64,000 bases of DNA, taken from positions 1-64,000 of the forward strand of contig NIVC01003150.1 in the NCBI GenBank assembly GCA_002269645.1, in the 5' to 3' direction. The stretch comes from Macrostomum lignano (lineage: Eukaryota). The notes under the pieces were generated by a model. The model ran no database searches. It saw only the letters and a list, made by a program, of their open reading frames with translations, and had not been told where the DNA came from. The translations under genes and the position numbers were made by a program. How positions within the stretch are numbered: the first letter of the stretch is position 1; each line of letters starts with the position of its first letter. Positions 5,192 through 27,524 of the stretch are shown here, piece after piece.

Positions 5192-5197
5192 GGGGGT
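5192..5197. repeat. Target site duplication, left copy (GGGGGT; right copy 15701-15706)
   Basis: Identical hexamer directly outside both TIRs; 6-bp TSD is typical of Polintons. Confidence 0.9.
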
Positions 5198-5842
5198 ACT
5201 ACTAAGGGATTCCGTATGGCGCGATTTTGCGAAGGTCCGTCGGGCTGATGTCGGCCTCTAGCACCGCGGCAAGGTGCTCCCTCGGGGTGTACCACCTCCC
5301 CCGGGGTGTACCTCCAGCGGGGTGGGTGTCCAGCGAGTGTACCTCCAGCGGGGTGGGCCTCCCGCGAGTGTACATCCGGCCGGCTGGGCGTCCAGCGAGT
5401 GTACCTTCAGCGCATGGGCCTCCCTCGGGGTGTACATCCGGCGGGGGGATTCCCGCCCCTCCCACCAATGTCGTGTGCACGCGGTTAGTGTAGGAAGGAA
5501 ACCCCGATGCTGACGCAGCCCTGTACACTGAGCAACCGGCCCCCCATGCGGGGGACAGAGAGCAGCCCCTGTAGCAGGAGGGGTAGTGCGTGGAGAGCCG
5601 CCATCCCCCTGTAGCAAGGGACAGATAACAGGCGGCCCCCTGTAGCAGTATGAGGTGGGGTACAAAGAGACACGGGGTGCTGGGACAGAGAGTGCGTGGA
5701 GGCACCCTGCGCTGCCCTGGCATGTCGCAGCACGCGGCGTGGACAGAGAGGGAGTGTGAGTCACACGGAGGGACAGAGAGCTTCCCCAGGCCGGGGTGGT
5801 AGAGGGACAGACCGGCGGTGAGTGATAGAGAGCTCCCCCAGG
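5198..5842 (+). repeat. Left terminal inverted repeat
   Basis: Begins ACTACTA; near-identical reverse complement of 15061-15700 apart from small indels and one 11-bp block. Confidence 0.95.
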
Positions 5843-5917
5843 CTGCAGAGGGACAGACAGGCCGCGAGCAACGTGTTAATGCAACCATAAATAGAAGCAG
5901 TGTACAAAACCCTCTGT

Positions 5918-6697
5918 ATGGAGAACATGGAAGAGGGTATAACTGATAACCCCTATTTCAGCAACGAGAGCGTGCGCGCCAGATTACCCCTCATTGAAAG
6001 ATTGTTATCAGACACTAGGAAAAGAATCGAGGGATTGACCGCAAAGGAGCGCTTAGAATTCACGTATCTAGCCCGGCTGGCATTCGTAACTGAAGTAAAC
6101 ATTGAGGAGAGAGAGGTGGCGTTGACTTGGGAGGAAGCAGAAGAAGCGATAAAAACCCGGTCCTGTATGGTCACAGCCAATCTATGGAGTGCGGCAATAC
6201 ACCTCAATGACACGAGGGGGTTAATTGACACAGAGTTTGTTAGACAAGTTCACACACGCGTGTGCAGAGGACTGCTCCCGAATGCAGGATCGTATAGAAT
6301 TAAGCACGCCAAGCCAGCAGGCGCGAGTATGTATTACAGTGCCCCAGAAAATATTGAACGGCAGCTGGTAAAATTAACTAGAGACATAAAAGAGCCACAA
6401 ATCTTGCGTGATGCAGTAGTGACAGGAGCATATTTCCTAGAAAAGTTTCTCACCATACACCCCTTTAGCGACGGCAATGGTAGAACTGCTAGGTTGTTAT
6501 TATCAAAGTTGATCAACCGGATTCTGCCAGAACCCGTATCATTTGCGTATGCAAATAGAGACACATATCTCAACTGTCTTTACGAAGCGCGCAGCAGCAA
6601 CCGGGGGCTCCTAGCGGCGTATTTACTTTTATCAATTGAGAGAACCGTTCTACAGTGGAGGGAATGGTTGGAAATCTGTTCAGACGGCAGCCTATAA
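5918..6697 (+). CDS. Fic-domain protein (putative AMPylase), class II-like
   Basis: Complete Fic motif HPFSDGNGRTAR; AGSYR flap; N-terminal TEVNIEE..LTWEE aligns by eye with the FICD inhibitory helix (TVAIEGNTLTLSE). First ATG at 5918. Confidence 0.92.
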   Translation: MENMEEGITDNPYFSNESVRARLPLIERLLSDTRKRIEGLTAKERLEFTYLARLAFVTEVNIEEREVALTWEEAEEAIKTRSCMVTANLWSAAIHLNDTRGLIDTEFVRQVHTRVCRGLLPNAGSYRIKHAKPAGASMYYSAPENIERQLVKLTRDIKEPQILRDAVVTGAYFLEKFLTIHPFSDGNGRTARLLLSKLINRILPEPVSFAYANRDTYLNCLYEARSSNRGLLAAYLLLSIERTVLQWREWLEICSDGSL

Positions 6698-6731
6698 ATA
6701 AATAAAATTGGTATTTCTCAACAATATCGAA

Positions 6732-7085
6732 ATGTACTGGCAATCGGAAATAGTGTACACCCACGTTGACAACGCAGTGCTGGAAGTGGGATATTGGGAC
6801 CCAAACAAACCGCGTTTCCGCATCCACTGTCAAAACTGTAGCTGTCCAGGAGCCGTGTTTAGTCGAGCACAATGGCATCGAATGAAATTTCTGGGCACTA
6901 GCTGCACAGATTACGATCTCGGAGGCGGCGCATCTATCAAAGTTATCGACGGGAAGCGCCTGTACGTAAAAGGAGACTGCGAATTTCACCTGTCAGACAA
7001 AATACTTTGTGCAGTTGAAAAGAATAGAGTCGACAATTTCTTCCACTATTTCTTTCTCGACGAATCTGACGAGTCAGAGGAATGA
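6732..7085 (+). CDS. Hypothetical viral protein, possibly PC4/Whirly-like
   Basis: ATG 39 nt after a TATAAATA box; LEVGY..P.FRI...GAVFSRAQWHRMK resembles the PC4 strand/helix pattern; acidic tail. Fold call is weak. Confidence 0.6.
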   Translation: MYWQSEIVYTHVDNAVLEVGYWDPNKPRFRIHCQNCSCPGAVFSRAQWHRMKFLGTSCTDYDLGGGASIKVIDGKRLYVKGDCEFHLSDKILCAVEKNRVDNFFHYFFLDESDESEE

Positions 7086-7462
7086 GCTGGATTTCTCGAG
7101 ACTACCCGCTTTTATCGAGCAAAGAAAGGGCAGAGTACGAGACCCTGAAAAAGTCCACAGACTGGTTATGCATTTGTCACGGCAAACCAATTCCCGAACG
7201 ATTAGTCACCTTTAATGTCGAGGTAGACGAAATTGGGCAAGGGCCTTACAGCACCCAAGAATATACAGATGCCCGAATTGACTACTACTTTAGAGACAAG
7301 ATGCATTTCAAAGCCAATCTTCAAAGAATGGAGCAGATAATTGCCCCAATATTACAAGAGGATCATCGTGAGAAAATACGGTACCGGAATCACCAGCCGA
7401 TTGCTCCCTCGTGGACGAACACCAAAGGATTTGGCGACCTAAACACAGTAGACCAGTGCTAG
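7082..7462 (+). CDS. Hypothetical viral protein (126 aa)
   Basis: ATGA start/stop overlap with the previous ORF; protein-like composition; no recognised motif. Confidence 0.7.
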   Translation: MSWISRDYPLLSSKERAEYETLKKSTDWLCICHGKPIPERLVTFNVEVDEIGQGPYSTQEYTDARIDYYFRDKMHFKANLQRMEQIIAPILQEDHREKIRYRNHQPIAPSWTNTKGFGDLNTVDQC

Positions 7463-7610
7463 CGAAGTTGACTATCAACCCTCACTGCAGCTGCATTAAC
7501 GACACGCCTCAAACCCCTCGACCAGAAGATCGAAACAAAAGGTTTATTTTTTCCGGATTTCCAACACCGGAAAGTGTCGTTAAAGAAGCACTATAACAAA
7601 AACGCCCAGC

Positions 7611-7640
7611 CACCCCACCCTCCGCCCAAGGGTATATAAG
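7611..7640 (+). promoter_or_regulatory. GC box plus TATATAAG promoter of the SSB-like/TBP-like unit
   Basis: CCACCCCACCCTCCGCCCAAGGGTATATAAG; TATA box at 7633 is 55 nt before ATG 7688. Confidence 0.55.
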
Positions 7641-7687
7641 GAGGCGCTCAGGGTGTGAGACCCACTCTCAGCAACAGCAGCAGCAAC

Positions 7688-8368
7688 ATGGATACCGTTC
7701 AAGACTACAATAGTGTTAGGATCGACCTATTCTCTCTCAAGTCGAGAGGTCCAAGCTACAACGGAACCGAGACGTACGACATTGAGTACGACGAACAGGG
7801 CCCTCTCTATCTTGCCAATGCGACGCCCGTACTGATTGTCAAGGGTGTGAGAACCGACAATGAAGGCCGCGAATTCATCATTCTTTCCCAAAAGCACTTG
7901 GAGAGCTGCATACCAGAAGCGTTCAATTCCGTGTGTCACCAGCTCTCTATCCAAGGAATGGCGCTATTGGGGTACAACCCCACTTTTGGCTGCGACAGCG
8001 CTGCATTCGGATTGGCTCACGACTTTAAAATGTACGACAAGAGCGGCAAGTTGTGCACCGACTACAAGAACAAGACGGGCTACTATAGAGTACTGTTCGC
8101 CCTAGACACGGCGGTGATTCACGACTCGGTTCTAACCGCGGTACCAAAAATTCAACAACTGCAATTCATAGAAGCTCCCAAGCAGGCGTTTGACCGCTGC
8201 TACTGGATTCCACCGTTAAAAATCAAGGTAGGACGCAAGCGCGGAGCTGGTGGAGCTGAGCGGAAACAAAAGCAACCGAAAAAACCGCTTGCAGAACGTC
8301 GTGTGCGTAAACAGGGTGTTTTGCGCAAGGTGGAACCACCTACCGAACTTGGACTGGGCGCGCGCTAG
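7688..8368 (+). CDS. Hypothetical viral protein, possibly OB-fold ssDNA-binding (DUF2738-like)
   Basis: ATG preceded by a GC box and TATATAAG. YDEQGPLYL..TP and YRVLFALDTAVIHD..TAVPKIQQLQFIE..FDRC resemble large-DNA-virus SSBs; basic NLS-like tail. ORF well supported, fold tentative. Confidence 0.65.
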   Translation: MDTVQDYNSVRIDLFSLKSRGPSYNGTETYDIEYDEQGPLYLANATPVLIVKGVRTDNEGREFIILSQKHLESCIPEAFNSVCHQLSIQGMALLGYNPTFGCDSAAFGLAHDFKMYDKSGKLCTDYKNKTGYYRVLFALDTAVIHDSVLTAVPKIQQLQFIEAPKQAFDRCYWIPPLKIKVGRKRGAGGAERKQKQPKKPLAERRVRKQGVLRKVEPPTELGLGAR

Positions 8369-8768
8369 AACGTTTCATAGACCCCGGGCATTGTACAACC
8401 TGAGGATCGGAAAGTGTACAATAAACTTTTTCAAACGTTCATTATCTGCCATTGTTTTTGGTTGCCAATCAACCAACGATGTGCTGCGTCTTTTTGCTCA
8501 ATGTAAACCAAACTCTGTTGTTATCACTACCGGTACTTATCGTGCAGAAGTTAATGTTAAGCCAAACTTTTTCCGCCTTGCCAACTCGAGCTCGCGCTGG
8601 GTTGAGTGGGAGAGTGAGGTATTCAATGGGCTTGTAATAAAGTCCCCATTCCGCAAGGCCAAGTGCCTGCTGTGCGGAAAGAATGGTCGGTTAGTGTTCC
8701 TAGGAATACGAAACTATGACGAACTGTGTAAAATGTACGACCACGTGACTGCTATTCTGCAACTCTAA
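8250..8768 (+). CDS. TATA-binding protein (TBP)-like protein, two-repeat core; no in-frame ATG
   Basis: RLQNVVCV ~ TBP [39 protein letters not shown] ~ [76 protein letters not shown] ~ [46 protein letters not shown]. Frame is open from 8232. Confidence 0.78.
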   Translation: [172 protein letters not shown]

Positions 8769-8806
8769 TTATGCTTTGCTTATAAATAAACAAAATATGC
8801 ACATGT

Positions 8807-9196
8807 ATGCACGCAATGCTTACCACCTTAATAATGACAAACGGAATTTCTCGTCTTTGTTCTTGCCGTCGCGAGCTAGAGGAGCTCGGTGACGCGCGAC
8901 CACATCGAAGGAGGGCCATTATTAGGGGAGCCGATAATGAGTTGATGCAGTGTCTGTGCGAGTTAAGCCACAATGTACTCAAGGGCAATATCGATCTATC
9001 CCCTAGACAGTTTGCAAGGTTGAAACGTTATAGAGAAGCCCTGCATGACATGGCCGACAAAAAACTGTCTATAAATAGGAAGAAGAATATGATACTATCG
9101 GACCCTCAAGTTGGAGGATTCCTACCAATTCTCGCCAAGATTGCTGCTCCGTTAATCACTGGACTGTTTGGTGGTCTGCTAGGACAACGACGTTGA
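8807..9196 (+). CDS. Conserved Polinton/adintovirus small protein with C-terminal GGFLP amphipathic segment (adenovirus pX-like)
   Basis: LCELSHNVLKGNIDLS...QVGGFLPILAKIAAPLITGLFGG pattern; true start may be ATG 8816 or 8834. Confidence 0.75.
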   Translation: MHAMLTTLIMTNGISRLCSCRRELEELGDARPHRRRAIIRGADNELMQCLCELSHNVLKGNIDLSPRQFARLKRYREALHDMADKKLSINRKKNMILSDPQVGGFLPILAKIAAPLITGLFGGLLGQRR

Positions 9197-9198
9197 AA

Positions 9199-9780
9199 AT
9201 GGACAAGTACGTTGTGGTCCCCGAGGAGGAATTCAATCAGCTTAGACAGGGTACTCCGCGAGAAATTGCCCCAAAATCGGAGTACGAAAAACTTGTAGAG
9301 TACAATGCAAAGCTACAGACCCAATTGGCTAAAGTAAAACCCCAAAAGACGACAAAGCAGCTATTTTCTGATAGGCAACAACGTATATGGAATATACTAA
9401 CAGAAAAGCACCCCAGCCTAAATTACAACCAATCGTGGGAAGTCGTTTTTGATGGTGAAACTTGGGGTGGCAGCAACGTTTTTGATCTTCTACAAGCCGT
9501 CACCACCAACACTAATAATCACCCGAAATATTCGACCGCTTTCTGGGCTCTGCTAGACAAGGCCCGTATACCAATGTCTATGCTCGGTCGGAAACAGCTC
9601 CCTGTGGAGGAAAAGAAGGTTGACCATATGGTTGGTACCGATGATTACCGCGATGAATATGAGCACACAATTGCGACAGACACCCGCGATTTAACGACCA
9701 CGCGCAACAAAGGTGTAAATGCTATGCCCAACTTGTGGATCAAGGTGCCGGGATGGGTAAATATCACGATTACCAACTAA
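9199..9780 (+). CDS. Conserved Polinton hypothetical protein
   Basis: MDKYVVVP start and W.VVFDGETWGGSNVFDLL...P....F...L...RIP pattern recalled from Polinton ORFs upstream of integrase. Confidence 0.65.
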   Translation: MDKYVVVPEEEFNQLRQGTPREIAPKSEYEKLVEYNAKLQTQLAKVKPQKTTKQLFSDRQQRIWNILTEKHPSLNYNQSWEVVFDGETWGGSNVFDLLQAVTTNTNNHPKYSTAFWALLDKARIPMSMLGRKQLPVEEKKVDHMVGTDDYRDEYEHTIATDTRDLTTTRNKGVNAMPNLWIKVPGWVNITITN

Positions 9781-9951
9781 GACCGCCCGGAACCGAAAAT
9801 ACGATACTCTTTATAAATAGAACCCTAATCCATACATAACCGCGCCCGGCGGTCATGGGCGCAGCAGCCGCCGCATCAAAGCTTTGTGTAGACAACTCCC
9901 CAGCCGACATTACGTGCAACTATTCATGCTGTGCATCCACACTTGTTGTCA

Positions 9952-11031
9952 ATGAGGGCTCTAACCGCTCTTCGTCGAGTTTACGAACAAGGAGCCGCCG
10001 CTTTTTCAAATGCTGCCCGTGTCTATCAGGAGGCCAAACGTCTGGCGCCAAACCTGACAAGACGCCAAACCAGGGAATGGCTAGAAACCCAACCGAGTTA
10101 CACCCGTCACCGGAGAGTCAACAGGACATTTAAAACGGGAAAAGTAATGTCGGGAGGATTCATGGAAACTCTACAAGCCGATTTGATGGACATGTCGCGA
10201 TACAAACGTTGGAATGACGGACATAAATATATACTAGTTGTTATTGATGTGCTTAGTAAGCAGGCTTTTTGTAGGGCAATTAAACTAAAGAGTGATACCC
10301 CCGCAGCGTTTGAGTCAATGTTGGCGAATGATTTCCCTGCCCGCCCCCTTTACCTGCACGTGGATCGGGGTACCGAGTTTTATAATCAGCGAATGCGCCG
10401 CATACTAAAAGACAATAATGTTAAAATGTACAGCACCAACTCTGTGTACAAGGCAAACATGGCCGAGAGGCTGATTAGAACTCTTCGAAAGCGTCTGGCT
10501 CGCTACTTTGAGCACAACAACACGTGGCGTTGGGTTGACTACTTACCCAATTTGGTAGGTAATTACAACAACACGACGCATTCTACTATTGAGATGAAAC
10601 CGTCAAGTGTAGGGTTCCACAATCAGAAGCGTGTGTGGGAAAAGCTCTACCCGGATCAGCAAAAAGACGACCCCGTATATAAAAAGGGGGATTTTGTGAG
10701 AATTTCGAAATCTCGCCGGGCATTCGACAAGGAGGCGTACGACATGTATAGTGAGGAGGTGTACATTATATCCAAAGTTTGTCCTGGACCCCCACATTTT
10801 TATCGTATTTCTGATTTGTCTGGTGAAGTGATTGAGGGACGGTTTTACTACAATGAACTGTCCAAATCTACCCGACCCGAGCGTTTTGTAATCAATAAAG
10901 TTTTGCGTAGAAACGTGTTAATAAATGGTGTTGCGCACCATTACGTTAGCTGGCGCGGTTATCCCGACACTTTTAATTCATTTGTACCTGTAAATGAAGT
11001 TATAAATATACGTCAACGTAATAATAACTAA
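9952..11031 (+). CDS. Retroviral-type (rve) integrase with C-terminal chromodomain
   Basis: DDE triad LQADL / LHVDRGTEF / AERLIRTL; YILVVIDVLSK; chromo-like YVSWRGYPDTFNSFVP. Confidence 0.97.
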   Translation: MRALTALRRVYEQGAAAFSNAARVYQEAKRLAPNLTRRQTREWLETQPSYTRHRRVNRTFKTGKVMSGGFMETLQADLMDMSRYKRWNDGHKYILVVIDVLSKQAFCRAIKLKSDTPAAFESMLANDFPARPLYLHVDRGTEFYNQRMRRILKDNNVKMYSTNSVYKANMAERLIRTLRKRLARYFEHNNTWRWVDYLPNLVGNYNNTTHSTIEMKPSSVGFHNQKRVWEKLYPDQQKDDPVYKKGDFVRISKSRRAFDKEAYDMYSEEVYIISKVCPGPPHFYRISDLSGEVIEGRFYYNELSKSTRPERFVINKVLRRNVLINGVAHHYVSWRGYPDTFNSFVPVNEVINIRQRNNN

Positions 11032-11034
11032 TGC

Positions 11035-12170
11035 ATGGCTACCATGCATCTCTTTCTGCCTAGCAATGCGTGCCCCGAGCACTATCCCGAAAATAATCCG
11101 GCTCATTATTTTATTAATTTACCGGACACTCTCCACTTTCCGAATCATGAGGTTTGCCTCGAACGGATCTACTTTACCAAAGAATTTGAATCTTTCAAAA
11201 AATCTATACCGATCACCATTCGCGAACAGGAGGGCCTCTTGACGGCTTCGTCGTTTGCAAACCTTTGTCTCGCAGCGGGTCTGAAAACCCCTGAAGAATG
11301 TATTTCCGGCTTTCTAAACGGTATCCGATACGTTGAAGGGGATAATAAGAAAATTGTCTTTTTAAGAACATCCCCAACCGCCTTTATGATTGTGAATACT
11401 TCAAAATCCACCGTCGGCATCAAATTCCCGGATACCCTACCCAAGGTGTTTAAACTAGTCGCCGGCTTCGAGTCTAATGAGGATCTACCTACTGAACTCG
11501 TATTACACGCGGGGTGTGCAGCCTCCATCACCGCAGTTGTTGAGGAACCGACTGTGCAGTCAATGGACCATGCTCCAATAATAAGACAAGTTACTAGCGC
11601 AGCGTCTGATCAAATATTTTTTATGCAGGGAGGATACTATAGTACACCTAAAAGAATGGTGGAGGAACTCAACAATTTAATTTGGAAACGGATCAAAGAT
11701 CTCATAGCGGCTCCAGCACCTAGAACGGACTTTTTCGGATACAGCGAAGTTACGAATAGGTGTTATTACATTGGCTCGATGGATTACATGTTTGGGCTGG
11801 GGCGCTTGACCGGCATGCTTGGTTTCCCAGAGCATGATTATACAACCCCATTTTTCGGTATATCGGACTTTCAGCCACATCAATGGAATTAACCGGTGGA
11901 ATACAAACAATGTACATCTATTCGAGCATAGTCGATTCTGTTATTGTAGGAGACGTTAAAGTTCCTCTGTTGGGAGCTATACCGATGGATCCCAAAGTTC
12001 AGGGCGGTCGCGAGTACTACGAGTTTGTCAATCCGGCATATCTACCGCTGGTTAAGCACCCATTCAAAACTATTGAAGTACAAATTAACGATGATATGGG
12101 CAGGGATATGACAAAAGTAATGAGGGGCAAGACCGTCTTGAGCGTTAACATCCGCGAAAAGAAGCTATAA
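11035..12170 (+). CDS. Minor capsid protein (penton), split by a 1-nt frameshift near 11851-11855
   Basis: N-terminal HLFLPSNAC..YPENNPAHYFINLP (11035-11892) and C-terminal MYIYSSIVDSVIVGDVKVPLLG..YEFVNPAYLPL..IEVQINDDMG (11883-12170) are the two halves of a Polinton penton. Confidence 0.85.
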
Positions 12171-12213
12171 ATAAACAGCACAGCCTCAGTAAACTATATC
12201 CTAGTGCTTAATC

Positions 12214-12558
12214 ATGCCTTCTATTCTGATTGGTGGAGCTTTGCCTGTTTTCGCGGGCGCCCAGAGGGGCAACGGTTTGTTTGGAAGCATTGCCCGCTTC
12301 GCGCTGCCAATTCTAAAGAGTTTTGGTAAAAACGTTCTCCGTCATGGTACTAGAGCCCTAGCAACTACTGTTAACGATAGCCTCGAGCAAGGAGGCAATT
12401 TGAAGGAGTCTGTCCTGCGCAATTCTGTTCAGGCTGCCAAGGACGCCTTTAAAGACACGGTTACCCAAAGGGGTAGCGGACGAAGAAGAAAAAAGGCTCC
12501 GAAGCGTCTCAATTCAGACATTTTCAGCACTATAAATAAAAAGCCCCGCTTCAATTAG
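12214..12558 (+). CDS. Polinton core/membrane-lytic-like protein (QRGxG motifs)
   Basis: FAGAQRGNGLFGSIARFALPILK amphipathic helix, second QRGSG, basic tail with DIF. Confidence 0.75.
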   Translation: MPSILIGGALPVFAGAQRGNGLFGSIARFALPILKSFGKNVLRHGTRALATTVNDSLEQGGNLKESVLRNSVQAAKDAFKDTVTQRGSGRRRKKAPKRLNSDIFSTINKKPRFN

Positions 12559-12587
12559 ATTCGCCGAATCGAGTCTGTCTACTAAAC

Positions 12588-13871
12588 ATGTCCGAGTGTC
12601 TGTGTACAAAGTCCGAGTTTGAGCTCTTTGCCCCTCGAGCCCACCAGATTGCCGCTGTAGGTTCAACTACTGAAGAAATCCACCCGGTTGCCAGCGTCGA
12701 AAATGCGAGTGTGGTTGAGTTTAGAATTGTGGGCGGCGAGACGTTTGTCGATCTTAATGACATTGATCTCGAGATTAAAGGTTGTATTAAAAGAGCTAAT
12801 GGAGCCGATTTGGCGGCGGATTCAAACGTGGCGCCAATCAATTACCTCTTGGAGACCATGTTCAAAAACGTGTCTCTTTCCATAAATGGTACACATATCG
12901 AGTCTAGCAACAACAACCATGCCTACAAGGCGTACATTCGTACATGCTTGAGTTATGGGTCTGATTCAAAGTCTAACCAACTGCGGATGATGGGCTACGC
13001 TAAAGACGCTGGGGGTCAAATGGCTGCGGTTGGAAATCCTGGCTTTGTAACTCGCAAGGCGATGGCTGCCGGTTCTCGAACATTTCACCTGTATGGCCCT
13101 CTTAGTCTCGACTTTTTTGTCACCAACGATCGTATGCTGCTACCCTACACTGATATGGTGGTTACGCTCACTCTGCAAAATTCGGGATTCGTTGTAGAGA
13201 ATCACGCCGAAGGGGTTGATGCAAAGTTGGTTCTTCAAAGTGCAAAATTACACGTTCGTCGGGTAAAGGCTAACCCCCAACTGGCCTTGGAGATTGAAGA
13301 ACAGCTGGCAACTCAGAATGCAGTCTACCCCATCGAGCGCCTCGTTGTACACAACACCTCTGTCGCTGTAGGAGTTCGCGACGTGTCAATCAATAATATT
13401 TTCCCGGAGCAGAAGCCTAAACTTGTCATTATGGGGATGGTAAATAGTGCCGCATATAACGGGGTGGCTACCCATAATCCGTTCAATTTCGAGCCATTTG
13501 GGGCTGACAGTGTGGCCCTGTACAAGGACGGTGTCAGTCTGTGCGGTCAACCATTCACTCCAAGGTTCGCTGCCCAAAACTATGCTCGCGAATACGCCAT
13601 GCTGTTTAAGAGCCTAGGGAAAATGAATCGCGATTTGGACATTGACCTGTCATATTCGGATTATCGCGCCGGTTACTGCTTATTTGCGTGGAATCTAATG
13701 CCCGATATGGAACTGGGTGGACATAGCATGCCTCGCGAGAGAGGGAATCTGACCCTACAGATAAAGTTTTCTGCAGCCCTACCTGCCGGGATTAACGTTT
13801 TGGTGTTTGGTTACTTTGACAACGCGGTGCAAATCACTAGAGGCCGCCAGCCCATTCTGGACTACGTATGA
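12588..13871 (+). CDS. Major capsid protein (double jelly-roll, Polinton PY)
   Basis: 427 aa; CTKSEFELF, EFRI, INYLLETMFKNV, YKAYI..LSYG, PKLVIMGMV..AYNG...NPFNF, GYCLFAWNLMPD, GNLTLQIKF. Confidence 0.95.
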   Translation: MSECLCTKSEFELFAPRAHQIAAVGSTTEEIHPVASVENASVVEFRIVGGETFVDLNDIDLEIKGCIKRANGADLAADSNVAPINYLLETMFKNVSLSINGTHIESSNNNHAYKAYIRTCLSYGSDSKSNQLRMMGYAKDAGGQMAAVGNPGFVTRKAMAAGSRTFHLYGPLSLDFFVTNDRMLLPYTDMVVTLTLQNSGFVVENHAEGVDAKLVLQSAKLHVRRVKANPQLALEIEEQLATQNAVYPIERLVVHNTSVAVGVRDVSINNIFPEQKPKLVIMGMVNSAAYNGVATHNPFNFEPFGADSVALYKDGVSLCGQPFTPRFAAQNYAREYAMLFKSLGKMNRDLDIDLSYSDYRAGYCLFAWNLMPDMELGGHSMPRERGNLTLQIKFSAALPAGINVLVFGYFDNAVQITRGRQPILDYV

Positions 13872-14305
13872 ACACGTTGGAAATTTTGGAGTGTTTAAAA
13901 CTACCTGTGGAAGTGCACGTTTGCCCTCTCGACAGAATTCCTGCACCTGTTTACCCTGCTGCATATGTAATTAATTTTGACACGGGTAATCTGCCAGGCA
14001 CCCACTGGGGACTGATTTGCCTACACGATGATAAGAGTGTGACATTTTTTGACCCTCTGTGTATTGAACCCGTGCCGGAATTGCTCTCGGCTTGGATCTC
14101 GAAGCATGTACATTCACCTGTTGCTATGAATCGCCACCCTGTTCAACACCCTCTAAGTGTAGCGTGTGGGCCGCATGTGATTTTTGTGGCCGAAAAGCAC
14201 TTTTTAGAGGGGTTGTCGATTGAAAAGATTTTAAGGGAATGTTACTCTACCAATCTGCTTGAAAATGATTTGATGGTTCGAAAACATGTTCTACAAATAA
14301 AATAG
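13868..14305 (+). CDS. Adenain-like cysteine protease
   Basis: Catalytic residues present: GTHW, FFDP, VQHPLSVACG. Confidence 0.95.
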   Translation: MNTLEILECLKLPVEVHVCPLDRIPAPVYPAAYVINFDTGNLPGTHWGLICLHDDKSVTFFDPLCIEPVPELLSAWISKHVHSPVAMNRHPVQHPLSVACGPHVIFVAEKHFLEGLSIEKILRECYSTNLLENDLMVRKHVLQIK

Positions 14306-14339
14306 TTTTTAATATTTGGAGTGTCAACTCGCCCTGAAA

Positions 14340-14969
14340 ATGTACCAAACAATTGATCCTGACGCTCTAAAGTTTGCTCCAAATACTTCGGCGATTTTTG
14401 CTGGTGTTAACCAGAGCGGAAAAACAACTCTTGTTAAAGAATTGCTGCGAAACGAGTTTTTTCAGGACCCTAAGCCTGTTCGCGTTGATTGGTTTGGGCA
14501 CTATCCAGACCCGGAACTGTTTGAATTACCGTACCCTGTCAATTTTCGCTCGTCTACATTTAACCCTGAAACCTATGTTCCCGCTCCGAATATTCTACTC
14601 GTTGTCGATGATCAAATGCAAGCCATGGAAAAAAACGCTGCTTTTACCGCATTTTTCACTCGCAAAGTCAGCCATGTGGGATTCCGGCTTTGGTACCTTG
14701 TACAAAACCTGTTTGCCAAGGGCAAGGAGCACCGCACTCAATCCCTTAACGCAAACTACCTTGTATTGTTCCGCAATGTACGGGACGTTAGTACAGTCGC
14801 CCATATTGCAAAGCAGCTTGTCCCCGCTAACCCAAAAAGTTTTGTTCAAATGTACGAAGACGCCACTAGGGAGCCCTACTCCTACTTGATTGTTAATTGC
14901 TTGCAGAACGCATCTGTTCGCTACTATGCTAATGTGTTGGGGCGCTACCCCGTAGTTTATGCTAAATAA
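14340..14969 (+). CDS. A32/FtsK-HerA genome packaging ATPase
   Basis: Walker A GVNQSGKTT, Walker B LLVVDD, LVQNLF, RTQSLNANYLVLFRNVRD. Confidence 0.95.
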   Translation: MYQTIDPDALKFAPNTSAIFAGVNQSGKTTLVKELLRNEFFQDPKPVRVDWFGHYPDPELFELPYPVNFRSSTFNPETYVPAPNILLVVDDQMQAMEKNAAFTAFFTRKVSHVGFRLWYLVQNLFAKGKEHRTQSLNANYLVLFRNVRDVSTVAHIAKQLVPANPKSFVQMYEDATREPYSYLIVNCLQNASVRYYANVLGRYPVVYAK

Positions 14970-15060
14970 AACACTGTTGGAGAGCTTTGCTCTGTTTGCC
15001 GGATGGCCTGAACCTGAAACAACTAAAATACGTGTTTTTTCTTTTCAAGTCCTCTACTGC

Positions 15061-15700
15061 CCTGGGGGAGCTCTCTATCACTCACCGCCGGTCTGTCCCT
15101 CTACCACCCCGGCCTGGGGAAGCTCTCTGTCCCTCCGTGTGACTCACACTCCCTCTCTGTCCACGCCGCGTGCTGCGACATGCCAGGGCAGCGCAGGGTG
15201 CCTCCACGCACTCTCTGTCCCAGCACCCCGTGTCTCTTTGTACCCCACCTCATACTGCTACAGGGGGCCGCCTGTTATCTGTCCCTTGCTACAGGGGGAT
15301 GGCGGCTCTCCACGCACTACCCCTCCTGCTACAGGGGCTGCTCTCTGTCCCCCGCATGGGGGGCCGGTTGCTCAGTGTACAGGGCTGCGTCAGCATCGGG
15401 GGTTTCCTTCCTACACTAACCGCGTGCACACGACATTGGTGGGAGGGGCGGGAATCCCCCCGCCGGATGTACACCCCGAGGGAGGCCCATGCGCTGAAGG
15501 TACACTCGCTGGACGCCCAGCCGGCCGGATGTACACTCGCGGGAGGCCCACCCCGCTGGAGGTACACTCGCTGGACACCCACCCCGCTGGAGGTACACCC
15601 CGGGTGTACACCCCGAGGGAGCACCTTGCCGCGGTGCTAGAGGCCGACATCAGCCCGACGGACCTTCGCAAAATCGCGCCATCTGCCAGTCCATAGTAGT
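15061..15700 (-). repeat. Right terminal inverted repeat
   Basis: Ends TAGTAGT; CCTGGGGGAGCTCTCTATCACT at 15061 is the reverse complement of 5821-5842. Confidence 0.95.
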
Positions 15701-17499
15701 GGGGGTCACGCCAGTTAAGGGTCACAGGGACGGATCAAGATCTCTCTTGAAGGGACATCTGTTTCGCAGGGGATCATTTTATCATTTCATTTCAAGAGAA
15801 ATTCAAGCGAGATTATAGCGCTATAATTAGCACCACAGTAGGGATCGTAATGCTATTTTTGGTGTCACAGGAGGGATCTTAGTAGCATTGATCGCAGATG
15901 GGATTTGACTCCCTGCAGACGTGGATCCAGAAAATTTCTTGAGGAGGGAACCCCTACACCCTGACGAAGCCCTTAAGCGCCAAAATAAGAAAGCAAGTGC
16001 CAAACTAGCAAGGGTCGAGGCGCAAAAACTAGGCATCATATTGCTGGCAGTCAAATGACGGTATCTCCTGTGATTTATTGACCGTTTATGTTACCAATGT
16101 GCCGGATTTACGAGTAACTGGAAGAAGAAGCAACACCTGCTTCTTACAAGTTCATTTCGGATTTGAGAGAGGCGTTGGAGAAAAGTTGGAACAAGGTTTG
16201 GCGGAATAGGCGAGCCTCCCCGCCGCATCCCGGACGGACCGGAGCCCCTGCAGTTAAGTCAAGCAAGCTACTATTTGAAACAAAGCTCCTCCCTCTTATG
16301 CGCTACCTTGGAGACCGCTATTTAACTGCGACCATATCTCGTAAATAGACAAATGTACAATGCTTTCAAACTAGTCATTGTGGATAGAAATAAGTTCGCA
16401 TGAATAACATCAAATCACGCTATTTTGATCTCCAATTGGAAGCCTTGAATAGCAGAGAAATCCGAAAGATTTCCAACAAAGCTATCAGCCCCATTTAATC
16501 CCTTTCGGGGCGATTCCGGGTACATGGGAGTGATTCAACGCACATTTGATTTTCCCATCATGGTTCCGAAATTAAAGTTGGACAAAGAAGAGACACCTTT
16601 TAGGGAAATAAGTTAAGCTTAGACGGTAAATTAGTGCATTAGTGCCAGACAGAGAGTATTGAAATTGAAAGCATGCATCAGCTTTTAGAGCGCAGCGATA
16701 AAGGCGGATCAATTAGGTTCAGTCAAGCTGGCAAAGCGTCAAATATTGTATATGGATAAAATGATGTGGAGAATGTTTTTTATAAATTCACTCCGCGAGT
16801 CAAGCTGGTGGAAATCTATTTCACATATTGATGTTCTCTGTACGTCAGTTTTATCAACTAAATTCATTTCTATACGAACCAGAATTAATTGATCAAACAG
16901 AAAATATATAATAACTGAATAGTTCAGTCAAAATATGAAAAGTATGGTTTCTCTTTAATAAAAACCTTATGCAAGTTTCTAAATATAGCCATTCCTAAAT
17001 CAGGTGCCAAAAGGTTTGAGGATATAAAAACACAGCAATCTAAGCAGCATCCTTGACAGCAGAAGCAGCAGACAGGATGCTGGCAATGGCCGCCCGCAGT
17101 GAGTGTGTGGCAACAACAAATGACCAGCCTCTATGTTTAGGACGCAATTAACAACAAGTCAATGTTTTGTAATTGCACTTTAGAGCAACGTAATGGATGG
17201 AGCTTTACAAGGAAAGCAACTTAAACACTAGGCCAGTAATGGTATAAGCCATCAGAGTGGTTAAAGGACCTAGGCAGCACCGGGACGACGAGTAAGAGGA
17301 TGCATTAAATTACATGAAATTAAGACACCGCATCTGTCTGCCAGTGCCAATGCACATAGAAAACGCACACATAAATATGAATTCTCCTATTCATTGCATG
17401 CACTGTGCAGCATCACTTTCCATTGCACTGATTTAGCCATAGTTTCCATGCAAACCAAATTTATATTTTACGATCAAACCCAAGCAGACATTCCGATTT

Positions 17500-17592: not shown

Positions 17593-18094
17593 CATAAGCC
17601 TGGGGTTTGGCTCTCGTGACTATGACGAACGCGAATGAGTGCGACCGCACACGGAATCGAAGCATTAAGAGTTGAGCTGTTTCTGCACTCAAGTGGCTTG
17701 GTGGACTCTATCGCGATTAATGGCCCTGTGCACCTGTTCTAGCATGCACAGACTGACGGAAAAAGGACAGTTCAACCTACCTAATCCAGTTGCGACAGAC
17801 GCAGCAGCCGGTGGCAGGTACCGCTGCCTGAATGCGCAAGGCAGCTCCCAGGAGACACTGCATGCATTAAAGAACAGTTTAGGCCAATGCTGCAGAGCCA
17901 TTCTGGGTTGACTAAGTACGCAACTCACTCAGCTAGTCATAGAATAATAACAGGCTGGGAAATAGCAGGTGTCTAACATCAGCTACCTGGCTATGGAGCA
18001 CGTAATAATTATTTGAACTGACATCGATGCTCAGTCAGTACTGCGGTAAGCTTAGACAGCTGGCGACTTGCTGGGCCAGCCTGCTAGACTGCCG

Positions 18095-18632
18095 ATCTGG
18101 GAGGCTGGTGCAGCAACTGAGGATCTGGGAGGCTGGCCCAGCAACTGAGGATCTGGGAGGCTGGCTCAGCAACTGAGGATCTGGGAGGCTGGCCCAGCAA
18201 CTGAGGATCTGGGAGGCTGGCCCAGCAACTGAGGATCTGGGAGGCTGGCACAGAAACTGAGGATCTGGGAGGCTGGCCCAGCAACTGAGGATCTGGGAGG
18301 CTGGCCCAGCAACTGAGGATCTGGGAGGCTGGCCCAGCAACTGAGGATCTGGGAGGCTGGCCCAGCAACTGAGGATCTGGGAGGCTGGCACAGCGACTGA
18401 GGATCTGGGAGGCTGGCCCAGCAACTGAAGATCTGGGAGGCTGGCCCAGCAACTGAAGATCTGGGAGGGTAGCACAGCAACTGAGGATCTGGGAGGCTGG
18501 CCCAGCAACTGAGGATCTGGGAGGCTGGCCCAGCAACTGAAGATCTGGGAGGGTAGCACAGCAACTGAGGATCTGGGAGGCTGGCCTAGCAACTGAGGAT
18601 CTGGGAGGGTGGCACAGCGACTGAGGGTCTAG
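18095..18632. repeat. 28-bp minisatellite (~18 copies)
   Basis: Unit CAGCAACTGAGGATCTGGGAGGCTGGCC. Confidence 0.92.
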
Positions 18633-20226
18633 GATGTTAGCGGTGAGCCAACAACGGAAAATTGAGGTTGGTGAAATTCGCGGAGGATGGTTATCAAGCA
18701 CATGCATGGATACAAGGAAAAAGGTTATTGAGTTTCCATCACAATCCACGAAAACACCGAATTTCCCTATTATCCTATTTAGAGTAGTAATGGAAGCGAA
18801 AGACAGACAAAATTAAAGACACCTGTACTAAAAGATATGCAATATAAGTGGCTATTTCTGAAAGTGGCCGTTTATTTAGAAGTTACCCTTTCAATTATCA
18901 AATGTGCTTTAACCATACGCCAAAAAGCATAATATTGCTCTACTAGATTGGGTTGTTGGTTGTCGGTGTGTGTACTTTAATGTCTGGGACTAGATTGGGG
19001 GCTGGTTGCCGGTGTGTGTATTTTAATGTCTGGGACTAGGTTGGGGGTTTGGTTGTTGGTATGTGTACTTAAATTGGCTGGGACTAGATTGCGGGGTTGG
19101 TTGTTGGTGTGTGTACTTTAATTAGCTGGGACTAGATTAGGGGTCTGGATGGTTGGTTGTAAGTGCTTACTTCAAAGAATAGGCTACAGTGACAGTAAGT
19201 ATTATAAGTGTTGCGTCACCAATGCCAATTAATATAAAGGCAATATGATTTAATAAAATGTTTCAATGGAAAGTATATATATATATATATAACAGTTAAT
19301 CTGGTTTTAAAATATTTAGTGTTACATCGCGCAAAAATATTATAAGGAAGCAGTTATGCTATATATAATTTAAAAAATAGGTAGATATCAGCCAAAATCT
19401 GACGAAACAAAAGCTATTATAAAAACCGACACCAGCAGAAGCGGAAAAATCCGCGGTCAATAAAATCACCTCTGATACATGTAGTATAATAAATCTCGTG
19501 AATAGAAAGACGCGCAGACAACTTCGGCTTAAAATATGAGCACAAGAGCATACGGCAGCAAAGCACCAGGCCCCAAGTGAGGAAAGCAATTAGTTAAAAG
19601 TACAAGGTACCAGTCTATTTGTAAATGACCTTAGTTGTAAGCGTGTTATAATTCCACGCCTAGATTGCATGCACCAGCACCGACATTGTGACTGACCTTC
19701 GGTTCAATAAACAAGCCACACCAGAGACCAATAAACAAATCATTTATACGCCATAAATCATGTACAAGCACGAAGTAAACAATTTGTAATCCCTGGATTA
19801 ACTAGACTAGCTGGAGAGGTTATCAATAATAATGCAAATTATTAAATTCTGCTGAAATCTGATAAGATATGCGAACATGTAATATCAAGTAACAAATACT
19901 CGTAAGTAGGTATTAGAAGTAGTAGAACCCATTGTAAGAGGTAAAAGTCACTAAGAAATCGTAGTCATTGGTTTCGATCGCTTTCTCTGCCGTCAAATAG
20001 TTTAACAAACTAGCTAGGTAAAACGGTTTACGCTACATATCGGTAGTGTGAATATAACTGCAAATAGTATGCAATACGATAGGATACCTTTCAAAAATTA
20101 CTTTTTCGATACATATCGGCAGTCCAGAAGCAATAGAAACTATGCCTCTCTAAAATAATATACGCAACATATCGGCAGACAATGCGACAGAATTTTGAAA
20201 GGCCAATAGTGCCAGTCCAGGGATCG

Positions 20227-21135
20227 TCAGTCCAGGCCAACGGACGGCAGGTGCCGGTCGGACAGGGCGCCGCTCCGGTGGTAGCGATCCCGATCGCCGT
20301 AGTCACCGTCGGTGCCCTGGGTGGCCAGAGTGGCCGGCTTGGCCGTCAGAGGCAGCTCGGGCACCGCGGTCGGCTTCAACACCAGCTGGCGAGCTTCGTC
20401 ATCATCATCATCATCATTGTCGCCTTCTCCGCCTTCACCGTTAGCATCGCCGTGACCGTGGTGACGCTGACTGGCCGGGCAGCAGCAGCGACAGCAGCAG
20501 CACCGACGAAGCTGCCTAGCCAAGTCGGTCAGCCAGTCGGTCAGGGAGAACTGAGCGGTGATGCCTGGAGCGGCGCCCGGGTAGGCCCGGCCCAGGTAGA
20601 GGTGCAGGGCGGCCAGCAGCAGCACGGCGGCGAGGGCGTACTCCCAGCGGGTGGCAAACATTACGGCCAGACAGGCTATAGCGGTTGCTAAGGAGACCCA
20701 ACGGTTGCTAAGGCTGGCGTAGCGAGCGGTTGACTTGTCTAGAATCGCTGAAGGTGAAGGAGGAACCGCCTGCTGCTGCTTGTCAGGCGAGGCGGAAGAC
20801 TTCACCGAGGCGGCCGAGCCATTCCGCCTGCGCTCGGCTGGAAACAGCTTGTCCAGGTCGCTGCTGCGGGACAGAGCCCGCTGCCTGTTGCCGGCCAGGT
20901 CTCCCGCAGTCTCCGGCCGAGCCGCCGCGGTGGTCACGCTCTTGGCGGCGTCGAAACGCCTGCGCTGACGTTGCTCCAAGTCGAAGGACATTGCCAACGC
21001 GAAATAGGCGTAGTTCACAGCGGCGTAGGTAAGTAGGAACGGCATAGCAACTATTGGACCCAATAAGTTTACGTTGCCAATCAGGATAAATAGCAGGGAG
21101 ATGCTGGCCACAGTTAATAGGGAGTAGACGGGCAC
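20227..21135 (-). CDS. SLC12A8: SLC12A8-like, exon 3
   Basis: PFLLTYAAVNYAYFALAMS and NRWVSLATAIACLAVMFATRWEYAL; acceptor TTTCTCTTTGCCCAG, phase 0. Confidence 0.85.
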   Translation of the reverse strand: MPVYSLLTVASISLLFILIGNVNLLGPIVAMPFLLTYAAVNYAYFALAMSFDLEQRQRRRFDAAKSVTTAAARPETAGDLAGNRQRALSRSSDLDKLFPAERRRNGSAASVKSSASPDKQQQAVPPSPSAILDKSTARYASLSNRWVSLATAIACLAVMFATRWEYALAAVLLLAALHLYLGRAYPGAAPGITAQFSLTDWLTDLARQLRRCCCCRCCCPASQRHHGHGDANGEGGEGDNDDDDDDEARQLVLKPTAVPELPLTAKPATLATQGTDGDYGDRDRYHRSGALSDRHLPSVGLD

Positions 21136-21194
21136 CTGGGCAAAGAGAAACGATTGCTGTTTTATTTAAAAACATTCAAAAGACCAGTAGAAAA

Positions 21195-23722
21195 GCGGGT
21201 CAAATCGGGTCAAGCTAGGTCAAGCCAAGTGAGAAAATCGGTCAAGCTAGGTCAAGCCAGGTGAGAAAATCGGGTCAAGCTGGGTCAAGCCAGGTGAGAA
21301 AATCGGGTCAAGCTGGGTCAAGCCAGGAGAAAAAATCGGGTCAAGCTAGGTCAAGCCAGGTGAAAAAATTGGGTCAAGCTAGGTCAAGCCAAGTGAGAAA
21401 ATCGGGTCAAGCTACGTCAAGCCAGGTGAGAAAATCGGGTCAAGCTACGTCAAGCCAGGTGAGAAAATTAGGTCAAGCTAGGTCAAGCCAGGTGAGAAAA
21501 TCGGTCAAGCTGGGTCAAGCCAGGTGAGAAAATCGGTCAAGCTGGGTCAAGCCAGGTGAGAAAATCGGTCAAGCTGGGTCAAGCCAGGTGAGAAAATCGG
21601 TCAAGCTAGGTCAAGCCAGGTGAGAAAATCGGGTCAAGCTACGTCAAGCCAGGTGAGAAAATCGGTCAAGCTGGGTCAAGCCAGGTGAGAAAATCGGTCA
21701 AGCTGGGTCAAGCCAGGTGAGAAAATCGGTCAAGCTGGGTCAAGCCAGGTGAGAAAATCGGTCAAGCTAGGTCAAGCCAGGTGAGAAAATCGGGTCAAGC
21801 TACGTCAAGCCAGGTGAGAAAATCGGTCAAGCTAGGTCAAGCCAGGTGAGAAAATCGGGTCAAGCTGGGTCAAGCCAGGTGAAAAAATCGGGTCAAGCTA
21901 CGTCAAGCCAGGTGAGAAAATCGGGTCAAGCTAGGTCAAGCCATGTGAAAAAATCGGGTAAAACTAGGTCAAGCTAGGTCAAGCCAGGTGAGAAAATCGG
22001 GTCAAGCTAGGTCAAGCCAGGTGAGAAAATCGGGTCAAGCTAGGTCAAGCCATGTGAGAAAATCGGGTCAAGCTAGGTCAAGCCAGGTGAGAAAATCGGG
22101 TCAAGCTAGGTCAAGCCAGGTGAGAAAATCGGGTCAAGCTGGGTCAAGCCAGGTGAGAAAATCGGTCAAGCTGGGTCAAGCCAGGTGAGAAAATCGGTCA
22201 AGCTGGGTCAAGCCAGGTGAGAAAATCGGTCAAGCTGGGTCAAGCCAGGTGAGAAAATCGGTCAAGCTAGGTCAAGCAAGGTGTGAAAATCGGGTCAAGC
22301 TGGGTCAAGCCAGGTGAGAAAATCGGGTCAAGCTGGGTCAAGCCAGGTGAGAAAATCGGGTCAAGCTGGGTCAAGCCAGGTGAGAAAATCGGTCAAGCTA
22401 GGTCAAGCCATGTGAGAAAATCGGTCAAGCTGGGTCAAGCCAGGTGAGAAAATCGGTCAAGCTGGGTCAAGCCAGGTGAGAAAATCGGGTCAAGCTGGGT
22501 CAAGCCAGGTGAGAAAATCGGTCAAGCTGGGTCAAGCCAGGTGTGAAAATCGGGTCAAGCTGGGTCAAGCCAGGTGAGAAAATCGGGTCAAGCTAGGTCA
22601 AGCCAGGTGAGAAAATCGGGTCAAGCTACGTCAAGCCAGGTGAGAAAATCGGGTCAAGCTAGGTCAAGCCATGTGAAAAAATCGGGTAAAACTAGGTCAA
22701 GCTAGGTGAGAAAATCGGGTCAAGCTAGGTCAAGCCAGGTGAGAAAATCGGGTCAAGCTACGTCAAGCCAGGTGAGAAAATCGGGTCAAGCTAGGTCAAG
22801 CCATGTGAAAAAATCGGGTAAAACTAGGTCAAGCTAGGTCAAGCCAGGTGAGAAAATCGGGTCAAGCTAGGTCAAGCCAGGTGAGAAAATCGGGTCAAGC
22901 TAGGTCAAGCCATGTGAGAAAATCGGGTCAAGCTAGGTCAAGCCAGGTGAGAAAATCGGGTCAAGCTGGGTCAAGCCAGGTGAGAAAATCGGTCAAGCTG
23001 GGTCAAGCCAGGTGAGAAAATCGGTCAAGCTGGGTCAAGCCAGGTGAGAAAATCGGTCAAGCTGGGTCAAGCCAGGTGAGAAAATCGGTCAAGCTAGGTC
23101 AAGCCAGGTGTGAAAATCGGGTCAAGCTGGGTCAAGCCAGGTGAGAAAATCGGGTCAAGCTGGGTCAAGCCAGGTGAGAAAATCGGGTCAAGCTGGGTCA
23201 AGCCAGGTGAGAAAATCGGTCAAGCTGGGTCAAGCCAGGTGAGAAAATCGGTCAAGCTGGGTCAAGCCAGGTGAGAAAATCGGTCAAGCTAGGTCAAGCA
23301 AGGTGTGAAAATCGGGTCAAGCTGGGTCAAGCCAGGTGAGAAAATCGGGTCAAGCTGGGTCAAGCCAGGTGAGAAAATCGGTCAAGCTGGGTCAAGCCAG
23401 GTGAGAAAATCGGTCAAGCTACGTCAAGCCAGGTGAGAAAATCGGGTCAAGCTAGGTCAAGCCAGGTGAGAAAATCGGTCAAGCTGGGTCAAGCCAGGTG
23501 AGAAAATCGGTCAAGCTAGGTCAAGCCAGGTGAGAAAATCGGTCAAGCTGGGTCAAGCCAGGTGAGAAAATCGGTCAAGCTGGGTCAAGCCAGGTGAGAA
23601 AATCGGTCAAGCTGGGTCAAGCCAGGTGAGAAAATCGGTCAAGCTGGGTCAAGCCAGGTGAGAAAATCGGTCAAGCTAGGTCAAGCCAGGTGAGAAAATC
23701 GGGTCAAGCTAAGTCAAGTCGG
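21195..23722. repeat. 32-33-bp satellite, ~2.5 kb, in SLC12A8 intron 2
   Basis: Unit GTCAAGCT(A/G)GGTCAAGCCAGGTGAGAAAATCG(G). Confidence 0.97.
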
Positions 23723-23834
23723 GAAAGAAACCGGGTCCCCTTGGTCAGTAAATCGAGTGGATAAAGTATATAAATCGGTTCAAGAAGCAAACGGAAGCAA
23801 ACAAATAGTGGAACAGATCAAGCCCAACACAAAC

Positions 23835-24557
23835 CTGCACAGAGAACTTGCGAACAGCCAGGGGTTCCATGAAAGCCAATTTCGTATCAGCGGCTATTGC
23901 CGACAAAATTCTACAGGCGCCGGACATGCCACCGAGAGCGGCGCTGAGCGCGCTAACGTAGAGGCCGCACAGGAATAGCGGGCCAAGCAGGGATACCTTC
24001 TGAGCGATGGCGTAGTCTGTTAGCAGAGCCTGACGGTAGCAGGTGGCGCCCAGCACCATGGCGAAGGTGAGGTACAGCAGGCAGCTGGCGCCGATAGCGC
24101 ACAGGCTGCCGAGCGGTATGTTGCGCTTCGGATCGCGCAGATCTGCGCACATATTAACGCCGGACATGACGCCAGTTATAGTTGGAAAGAATACACCAAG
24201 CACAGTGAAGAAACCATTAACGGAGTCATTGTCGACGTGGTACCCATGGTTGCTAGGTGGAAAAGTGTTGTTACTAAGGACGCCAGCTGAGTAGCCCGCA
24301 AAGCCGACTGGATGGCGCCAATTAGCGAAGGAGCCGAGCAGGAAGTCCAGCACAGCGGCCAGCAGCACTGCCAGCAGGGCCAGCTGCAGTCGGACAACCC
24401 ACTTCACCCCGGCCGCGTTGACGCCGACCAGGCCGACAGTGACGGCGACGGCGAATCCGCGGGCTGCCCAGGCTGCCGACGTTGACGACGGCGCCAGCGG
24501 GAGCAGAGAGGCGGCCGATTCGCCCAAGCCGACGGCGTTCAGAGAGGCACCGATGGT
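23835..24557 (-). CDS. SLC12A8: SLC12A8-like, exon 2
   Basis: FFTVLGVFFPTITGVMSGVNMCADLRDPKRNIPLGSL; AG acceptor 24558-24559 and GT donor 23834-23833, both phase 0. Confidence 0.85.
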
Positions 24558-25341: not shown

Positions 25342-25767
25342 CTGAGCCAGGCAGTACATCAGGCCGATAGCCGCAGCCCGCCGGCCGCCCAGCACGCGGC
25401 CCAGCAGCGGATAGACTCCGCAGGCCTCGGCGCCGCAGCGCTCCAGCACGCCAATAACGCTGAGCACGGAGAACAGGGCCACGGACACGGGTATGAGGAT
25501 GACCAGCAAGCCCAGAAGCAGGCCGGCATTGCCAACAACCCAGCCGGTGCGCAGAAACACCACCATGCCGACCGTGTTCAACAGGCAGGTGGTGAACACA
25601 CCGTCCCAGGTGCCGAATTTCACTGATTCGCCGAATCGAAGCAGGAAATTGGCCCGCCACCAGGGCAGCGCGGAGTCGTGGCCCTCCTCACAGAACAGCT
25701 CGCCTTCTCGAACAGGCGGCGCGGCAGGGCTGACGCCGCCGTTCAGCAGCACGTCTCGCTCGCTCAT
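25342..25767 (-). CDS. SLC12A8: SLC12A8-like cation-chloride cotransporter, exon 1
   Basis: KFGTWDGVFTTCLLNTVGMVVFLRTGWVVGNAG; GT donor after CAG at 25342 (phase 0). Confidence 0.85.
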
Positions 25768-27425: not shown

Positions 27426-27524
27426 TTTAGCTGCTTATCTACCTATTAGTTGATCTATCTCTATCCATCTATCTATCTATCTACCTATCTATCTATCTAT
27501 CTATCTACCTATCTATCTATCTAC

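Follow-up and report, generated by a model that had tools for sequence, protein, structure and literature searches.

The first gene of a virus-like mobile element in the Macrostomum lignano genome encodes an intact Fic protein, and this gene is under purifying selection. The element lies complete within the window, by which we mean the whole stretch of 64,000 nucleotides that was analysed, and belongs to a multi-copy, Maverick-like family without a polymerase (family A). We consider an auto-inhibited AMPylase/deAMPylase to be the best reading of the protein as judged from its residues. We also propose, with slightly more confidence than doubt, that it modifies its target in a regulated way, the target being either a host protein of the cytosol or nucleus or a helper protein, and that an active polymerase-less family carries it as accessory cargo. 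Public proteins labelled Macrostomum lignano are 99-100% identical to the Fic proteins of the element and of the host. The original prediction had recognised a catalytically complete Fic AMPylase at the start of a viral element. It missed that the element lacks a polymerase and that the nearest relative of the Fic is a host gene other than FICD.

In a profile search, the Fic open reading frame matched Pfam Fic (PF02661) at E 6.6e-14, with 53 bits against a curated cut-off of 24. The catalytic motif HPFSDGNGRTAR is complete (H181-P-F-S-D-G-N-G-R189-T-A-R192), in agreement with the original prediction. The Fic consensus is given as HxFx(D/E)GN(G/K)RxxR in PMC8097203, and because HPFSDGNGRTAR fits it, the protein carries the Fic (Fido) motif. 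AlphaFold modelling from 100 relatives gave a pLDDT of 95, and the model aligned with residues 187-441 of human FICD (4u0u) over 238 residues, with a Z of 26.2 and an rmsd of 2.6. The modelled protein has the helical Fic fold. The name AMPylase stands as far as the intact fold and motif are concerned, but it appears too narrow, since an enzyme that has retained the Glu is likely to be auto-inhibited and to work in both directions.

The evidence on this Glu is mixed. VNIEE holds two glutamates, and E64 shares a MAFFT column with the Glu of the FICD xxxIEG motif. Of 100 aligned relatives, 97 have Glu at this position, and E64 directly follows helix 42-63 in the AlphaFold model. However, the full (S/T)xxxE(G/N) inhibitory sequence was not found in the element Fic, which has V60 in place of S/T and R65 in place of G/N; both positions are variable across its relatives. 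When the family was aligned to FICD with an HMM, its Glu fell three residues earlier, with a low posterior. Given the altered flanks and the shifted register, the predicted correspondence of E64 to the inhibitory Glu of FICD is likely but unproven. An acidic residue was present five positions before E64 in 85 of the 100 relatives. The model suggests that the protein is likely class II-like, with an inhibitory helix that precedes the core and ends in a conserved Glu.

The protein has neither TPR repeats (no match in a Pfam profile search) nor a hydrophobic segment, its top 19-residue hydropathy being 1.03 compared with 2.1-2.5 in three FICDs. The expectation that it would lack transmembrane and TPR regions was thus confirmed. 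Because there is no TPR and no membrane anchor, action in the ER on BiP, as by FICD, is unlikely. The gene is the first ATG open reading frame past the left inverted repeat, as predicted, and its GC content is similar to that of the rest of the element. Assembled contigs from two runs, guessed to be RNA, span the Fic gene (5852-8162 and 5804-7497) and none lies on the single-copy flanks, a pattern that multi-copy DNA could also produce. The features of the element are listed in Table 1.

Table 1. Features of the Fic-bearing family A element and its flanks (positions in the window).
Feature	Positions	Strand	Remarks
Whole polymerase-less Maverick-like element, family A	5198..15700	+	10,503 bp; ends ACTACT...AGTAGT; all genes on the + strand
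Target-site duplication, left copy (GGGGGT)	5192..5197	+	6 bp
Target-site duplication, right copy	15701..15706	+	6 bp
Left terminal inverted repeat	5198..5842	+	about 645 bp; three arms: 344 nt (100%), 206 nt (100%) and 95 nt (93%)
Right terminal inverted repeat	15061..15700	-	inverted-repeat arms
TATA-like site CATAAAT	5886..5892	+	32 bp 5' of the Fic start; pattern match only
Fic gene	5918..6697	+	259 aa, intronless
Codon of Glu64, inhibitory-Glu position	6107..6109	+	from MAFFT column
Catalytic motif (H181-R192)	6458..6493	+	from translated ORF
AATAAA poly(A)-like signal	6697..6702	+	at the Fic stop; pattern match only
ORF2	6732..7085	+	117 aa; no known family; present or absent together with Fic
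ORF3	7082..7462	+	126 aa; no family named; common to family B
ORF4	7688..8368	+	226 aa; may be an OB-fold protein that binds single-stranded DNA, on weak evidence
129-aa ORF, which we take to be pX	8807..9196	+	relatives in polymerase-bearing Mavericks of the genome
193-aa ORF	9199..9780	+	no family named
rve integrase	9952..11031	+	359 aa; PF00665, E 1.9e-9
Probable minor capsid gene	11035..12170	+	two frames here; position and weak likeness, no family match
114-aa ORF, presumably the core protein	12214..12558	+	probable core protein
Probable major capsid protein	12588..13871	+	427 aa; 30-33% identical to polymerase-bearing Maverick ORF; no Pfam match
Probable adenovirus-type cysteine protease	13868..14305	+	145 aa; Peptidase_C48 E 0.06, under cut-off
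Probable packaging ATPase	14340..14969	+	209 aa; likeness to polymerase-bearing Mavericks

The carrier resembles Polintons/Mavericks, Tlr1 and Polinton-like viruses in its inverted ends, its 6-bp target duplication, its rve integrase and its capsid, protease and ATPase genes. The labels of the last three derive from tblastn likeness to open reading frames beside polymerase genes, together with recall, and not from family matches; the three proteins are 26-38% identical to their counterparts in polymerase-bearing Mavericks of the same genome. A capsid-protease-packaging ATPase module is probably present in family A. Unlike those systems, family A has neither a polymerase nor a helicase. The longest open reading frame in the element is 427 aa, and a search with four of the genome's polymerases gave a best match of E 0.09 in family A or in one copy of a sister family, B. 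No open reading frame above 427 aa, and hence no large SF1 helicase, was found in the element; the SF1 helicases of Tlr1 and Polinton-like viruses measure 1,000-1,400 aa (PMC5499653). The same source states that Polintons have a protein-primed polymerase by definition and that Tlr1 and many Polinton-like viruses carry the large helicase instead. Insect polinton variants in which LINE or gypsy sequence replaces the polymerase are described in a preprint (10.1101/2025.02.07.637071), and another mentions a Polinton-related insertion in a flatworm (10.1101/2025.04.19.649669).

We found 14 other family A stretches collinear with the window element at 95-99.9% identity. The 6-bp duplication was perfect in 6 of 10 copies examined and imperfect in another; the ends of the remaining three were not found. 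In addition, one sequencing run, among four examined out of 24, contained an empty-site allele (joint 5190/15701). The collinear copies, their own duplications and the empty site together indicate recent insertion of the polymerase-less form, as one whole. Family A is young, as 17 open full-length Fic copies, separate insertion sites and the empty-site allele show, and it is still spreading. No related element was confirmed in viral or metagenome contigs.

AGTAGT-type ends are the Polinton/Maverick consensus. Such ends were present in three co-resident polymerase-bearing Mavericks, whereas family A has ACTACT and family B ACTACG. A blastn comparison of 18 stretches at E 1e-3 revealed no end sequence in common with co-resident polymerase-bearing Mavericks. 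Families A and B are both complete and multi-copy, and their ACTACT/ACTACG ends are the reverse complement of AGTAGT ends. This polymerase-less pair with reversed ends may outweigh the Fic gene in importance, and an actively inserting Maverick-like element without a replication enzyme turns the question of how such elements copy into a testable one. At their outer tips, over some 20 bases, the two repeats are not alike (5198-5217 vs 15681-15700), and in other copies either variant can lie on either side; the mixed end variants suggest exchange between end types. The probable minor capsid gene is split near 11.88 kb in some copies and not in others, and no other gene diverges as much between the two families (about 37% in the middle of the gene). 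An open frame without an ATG at 8232-8768 matches a 142-aa open reading frame of family B and is likely an unannotated gene.

Absence of the reading frame from other copies, or relaxed selection, had been named as evidence that would speak against the original prediction. A genome search gave 69 Fic matches, among which 17, including the window copy, were open, full length and 91-100% identical. We fetched 20 copies and compared 19 with the window copy. E64, H181, D185, R189 and R192 were kept in all 19, and frame breaks or stops elsewhere were present in three. Variants found in at least two copies comprised 17 synonymous and 17 non-synonymous changes on 176:601 sites (pN/pS 0.29), where some of the counted copies may be allelic or duplicated assemblies of one locus. 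The synonymous excess was significant (p 4e-4; p 0.011 when transitions were generously allowed for), and dN/dS against two old decayed relatives was 0.28-0.33. The gene is thus under purifying selection and not relaxed. A recent, inert capture without function is highly improbable. Several copies are decayed, and the constraint on Fic (0.29) is weaker than on the other element genes (0.14 pooled), a non-significant difference (Fisher p 0.09), as a passenger would lead one to expect. Nevertheless, the selection test on the Fic copies largely refuted it, and all catalytic residues have been kept at an identity of only 44-47% to the nearest host protein. Old decayed cassettes of Fic and ORF2 (about 76% DNA identity) were also observed, some of them in tandem blocks (contigs C40, C1500 and C2311); no other element genes were seen in the stretches read.

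We compared the two families for the presence of Fic. By hand count, of 27 contigs that hold an A-type capsid gene, 26 also had a Fic match, the remaining one ending before the Fic site, and none of 35 B-type loci had one nearby; these locus counts are lower bounds, as 98 of 451 candidates were scored. None of the eight family B copies read directly has Fic or ORF2. Family B is closely related to family A (capsid 88%, integrase 81% and ATPase 87% identical), with about 75% DNA identity and unrelated inverted repeats. It is itself polymerase-less, with its own repeats and target duplications, and occupies at least 35 loci; it may be complemented in trans. One family B copy, on contig C1313, is rearranged and has two capsid genes that are inverted in orientation.

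Since family B lacks Fic, the gene is an accessory, and it is unlikely that the integrase or ATPase of the element needs it as a regulator. The original suggestion that it might regulate these two proteins is weakened accordingly. A fuller form of this idea, in which Fic modifies the element's integrase, packaging ATPase or ORF2 and so times integration or packaging, is improbable in our view. It would fit a first gene with promoter-like and poly(A)-like signals of its own, the joint presence or absence of ORF2 and Fic, and a probably long history of Fic in the family A lineage. It has to contend with the Fic-less B loci, elements that have close integrase and ATPase orthologues and target duplications at their ends, and with the polymerase-bearing Mavericks examined, which hold none of the genome's 37 Pfam Fic matches. 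The absence of Fic in B means that it is dispensable for B; it is no proof that Fic ignores element proteins in A.

The joint gain and loss of Fic and ORF2 as a two-gene cassette could also point to a selfish toxin or competition factor, which would harm element-free cells or embryos or block competing elements, with ORF2 as the antidote. The cargo of nematode Mavericks is reported to have given rise to a toxin-antidote pair (10.1101/2022.07.12.499685). Yet a Fic with its own Glu at the inhibitory position makes a separate antitoxin unneeded, and in some copies ORF2 is whole although Fic is broken. We regard this explanation as distinctly improbable.

We next turn to the origin of the gene. 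Among 1.84 billion proteins, the best non-self matches were P0003 (47%, E 4e-41) and P0004 (41%, E 7e-40), followed by a match at E 4e-23. P0003 is a host gene, FicA, which was found at three loci with a GT-AG intron (about 4-6 kb) and has kept the Glu. No element genes were found within about 30 kb of FicA at the three loci. Identity between the element Fic and FicA is 44-47%, with all catalytic residues kept. A second host gene, FicB, is the tandem neighbour of FicA, about 1.6 kb apart at three loci (contigs C42, C458 and C2412). It is a single 328-aa frame with the full motif and has Ser in the E64 column, where FicA and the element Fic have Glu. A third kind of host Fic has the motif HPYKNGNGRVAR (contigs C3124 and C173), with no element genes in the stretches read, and a TPR-bearing FICD is present elsewhere in the genome.

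Phylogeny had been proposed as a check, and we built a quick tree of 77 rows, picked from 132 collected, and a careful tree of 26 rows. The viral Fic, FicA and P0004 formed a clade in both (support 99 and 98/94, respectively), and this clade sits inside a broad group of soluble Fics. A FICD origin was rejected: the quick tree excluded grouping with metazoan FICD (p-AU 8e-5). Bacterial class II Fics fell in a separate clade of the quick tree. Of the comparison proposed, the trees thus cover the FICD and bacterial parts. Recent capture from a phage or an IMG/VR virus was likewise rejected; a direct scan gave no relative, and an alignment scan gave at most 33% over 134 residues. The IMG/VR rows fell outside the viral/FicA/P0004 clade in the quick tree.

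As the best non-self match is an intron-bearing host gene, the Fic appears to have moved between host chromosome and element. The comparison points to an exchange long ago, in either direction. The careful tree was ((viral,(FicA,P0004)),FicB), with 97/77 for FicA plus P0004 and 91/81 for the FicB branch, neither of them starred, and the alternative grouping of viral Fic with FicA was not rejected (AU p 0.21). Transfer from host to element would agree with the FicA intron, with the tandem paralogue as a weakly supported sister and with a cargo position like that in nematode Mavericks. Transfer from element to host, or long residence in the element, would agree with P0004 as a viral outgroup and FicA among viral sequences, a placement whose support is not firm. 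P0004 (a 41% Fic) and P0297 (a 46-52% relative of ORF4) were each traced to a Logan contig 3,894 bases long. This is probably one and the same contig, which would then be a relative of the element that carries Fic but is more distant. If so, P0004 is a viral outgroup and a loss of Fic in family B is implied. Fic is probably old in the family A lineage.

The host pair suggests a further explanation, in which the additional Fic genes of the host serve defence or stress responses through AMPylation, with FicB as a writer and FicA as an eraser, and the element's FicA-type enzyme strips host AMP from its own or helper proteins as counter-defence. The close tandem arrangement at three host loci and the Ser of FicB opposite the Glu of FicA and the element Fic would suit such a pair, and Glu is reported as a deAMPylation signature (PMC6408439). 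Against this, a defence role of FicA/FicB is a supposition, the N-terminus of FicB is divergent (long branch) so that the column may be misaligned, and family B spreads without Fic. We think this explanation unlikely. A broader picture is just as speculative: families A and B would be satellite relatives of Mavericks, with reversed ends, a giant-virus-type SSB and an unknown helper, and Fic would reverse a FicA/FicB defence or tune the helper. If true, animals would have a conflict system based on AMPylation that operates outside the ER.

We return to the preferred reading of a regulated modifier carried as accessory cargo. In Fic chemistry, the catalytic His activates the hydroxyl of the target and the Asp binds a metal. 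By analogy with known Fic enzymes, His181 and an Asp185-bound Mg would take AMP from ATP and attach it to a hydroxyl on the target protein, and Glu64 would restrain AMPylation and support AMP removal. The wild-type protein would then probably be a weak writer and a competent eraser. A kept inhibitory Glu has been proposed as the signature of two-way (AMPylating and deAMPylating) Fics (PMC6408439). Considering the dispensability and origin of the gene, the enzyme may act on a host protein in the cytosol or nucleus, or on one belonging to the helper that would provide replication. The modification would help family A to persist or spread and would not be a step of its own transposition cycle.

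Comparison with known systems places the protein between several of them. It resembles metazoan FICD/HYPE (human FICD, C. elegans FIC-1) in the Fic core fold (Z 24-26), the catalytic motif and an N-terminal inhibitory helix with Glu, but differs in the missing membrane anchor and TPR, in a structural identity of about 19% and in its separate clade. Like the class II bacterial Fics (SoFic, BtFic and CdFic), it is stand-alone and soluble, with an inhibitory helix before the core (Z 17-23); unlike them, it lacks the S/T and G/N of the motif, and an extra acidic residue is common in its relatives. The closest viral precedents are wsv406 and the FIC-like protein of Oryctes rhinoceros nudivirus, stand-alone Fics of invertebrate DNA viruses. 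The top viral structural match was wsv406 (E 5.6e-9, 259 aa). However, these proteins are only 22-25% identical to the element Fic and belong to large autonomous viruses, in contrast to the element Fic, whose carrier integrates and measures 10.5 kb and whose close relative is a host gene. As for cargo, the wasp proteases and krma kinases of nematode Mavericks are likewise bacterial-effector-like enzymes with host kin (10.1101/2022.07.12.499685), located in the gap between left repeat and integrase. Here the cargo is instead an intronless Fic with element-like GC in a carrier without a polymerase.

A viral Fic as such is therefore not new, and effector-like Maverick cargo is also known. We found no paper on Fic in a Polinton, Maverick, Polinton-like virus or giant virus, or on Fic as Maverick cargo, in a search in which subscription papers were mostly out of reach and bioRxiv supplements may bear on the point. 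The same literature yielded nothing relevant on Polintons or Mavericks in Macrostomum lignano. Most animals are described with one Fic gene, the ER-bound FICD (PMC8097203). Macrostomum lignano has FICD, three further soluble kinds of Fic and a multi-copy element with a selected relative of FicA. In a flatworm kept in the laboratory, this provides a testable case of AMPylation in the conflict between host and mobile element, with the Fic-less sister family B as a natural control.

ORF2 and ORF4 gave no usable match in the ESM Atlas and none in Pfam. The model of ORF4 was poor (pLDDT 47), and four relatives only were found. Its top fold matches were ASFV CP312R (Z 4.1) and T7 gp2.5 (Z 2.6), together with many giant-virus proteins. 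ASFV CP312R is reported to bind single-stranded DNA (PMC9963768). The model suggests that ORF4 may be a single-stranded DNA binder.

The rest of the window contains a gypsy-type LTR retrotransposon at 37559-43454, with gag, reverse transcriptase, RNase H and integrase frames. Tandem arrays occupy 18094-34687 and 52823-61099, with units of 28, 33, 67, 43 and 21 bp and a 2.5-kb TCTA microsatellite. The long open reading frames within these arrays are repeat artefacts.
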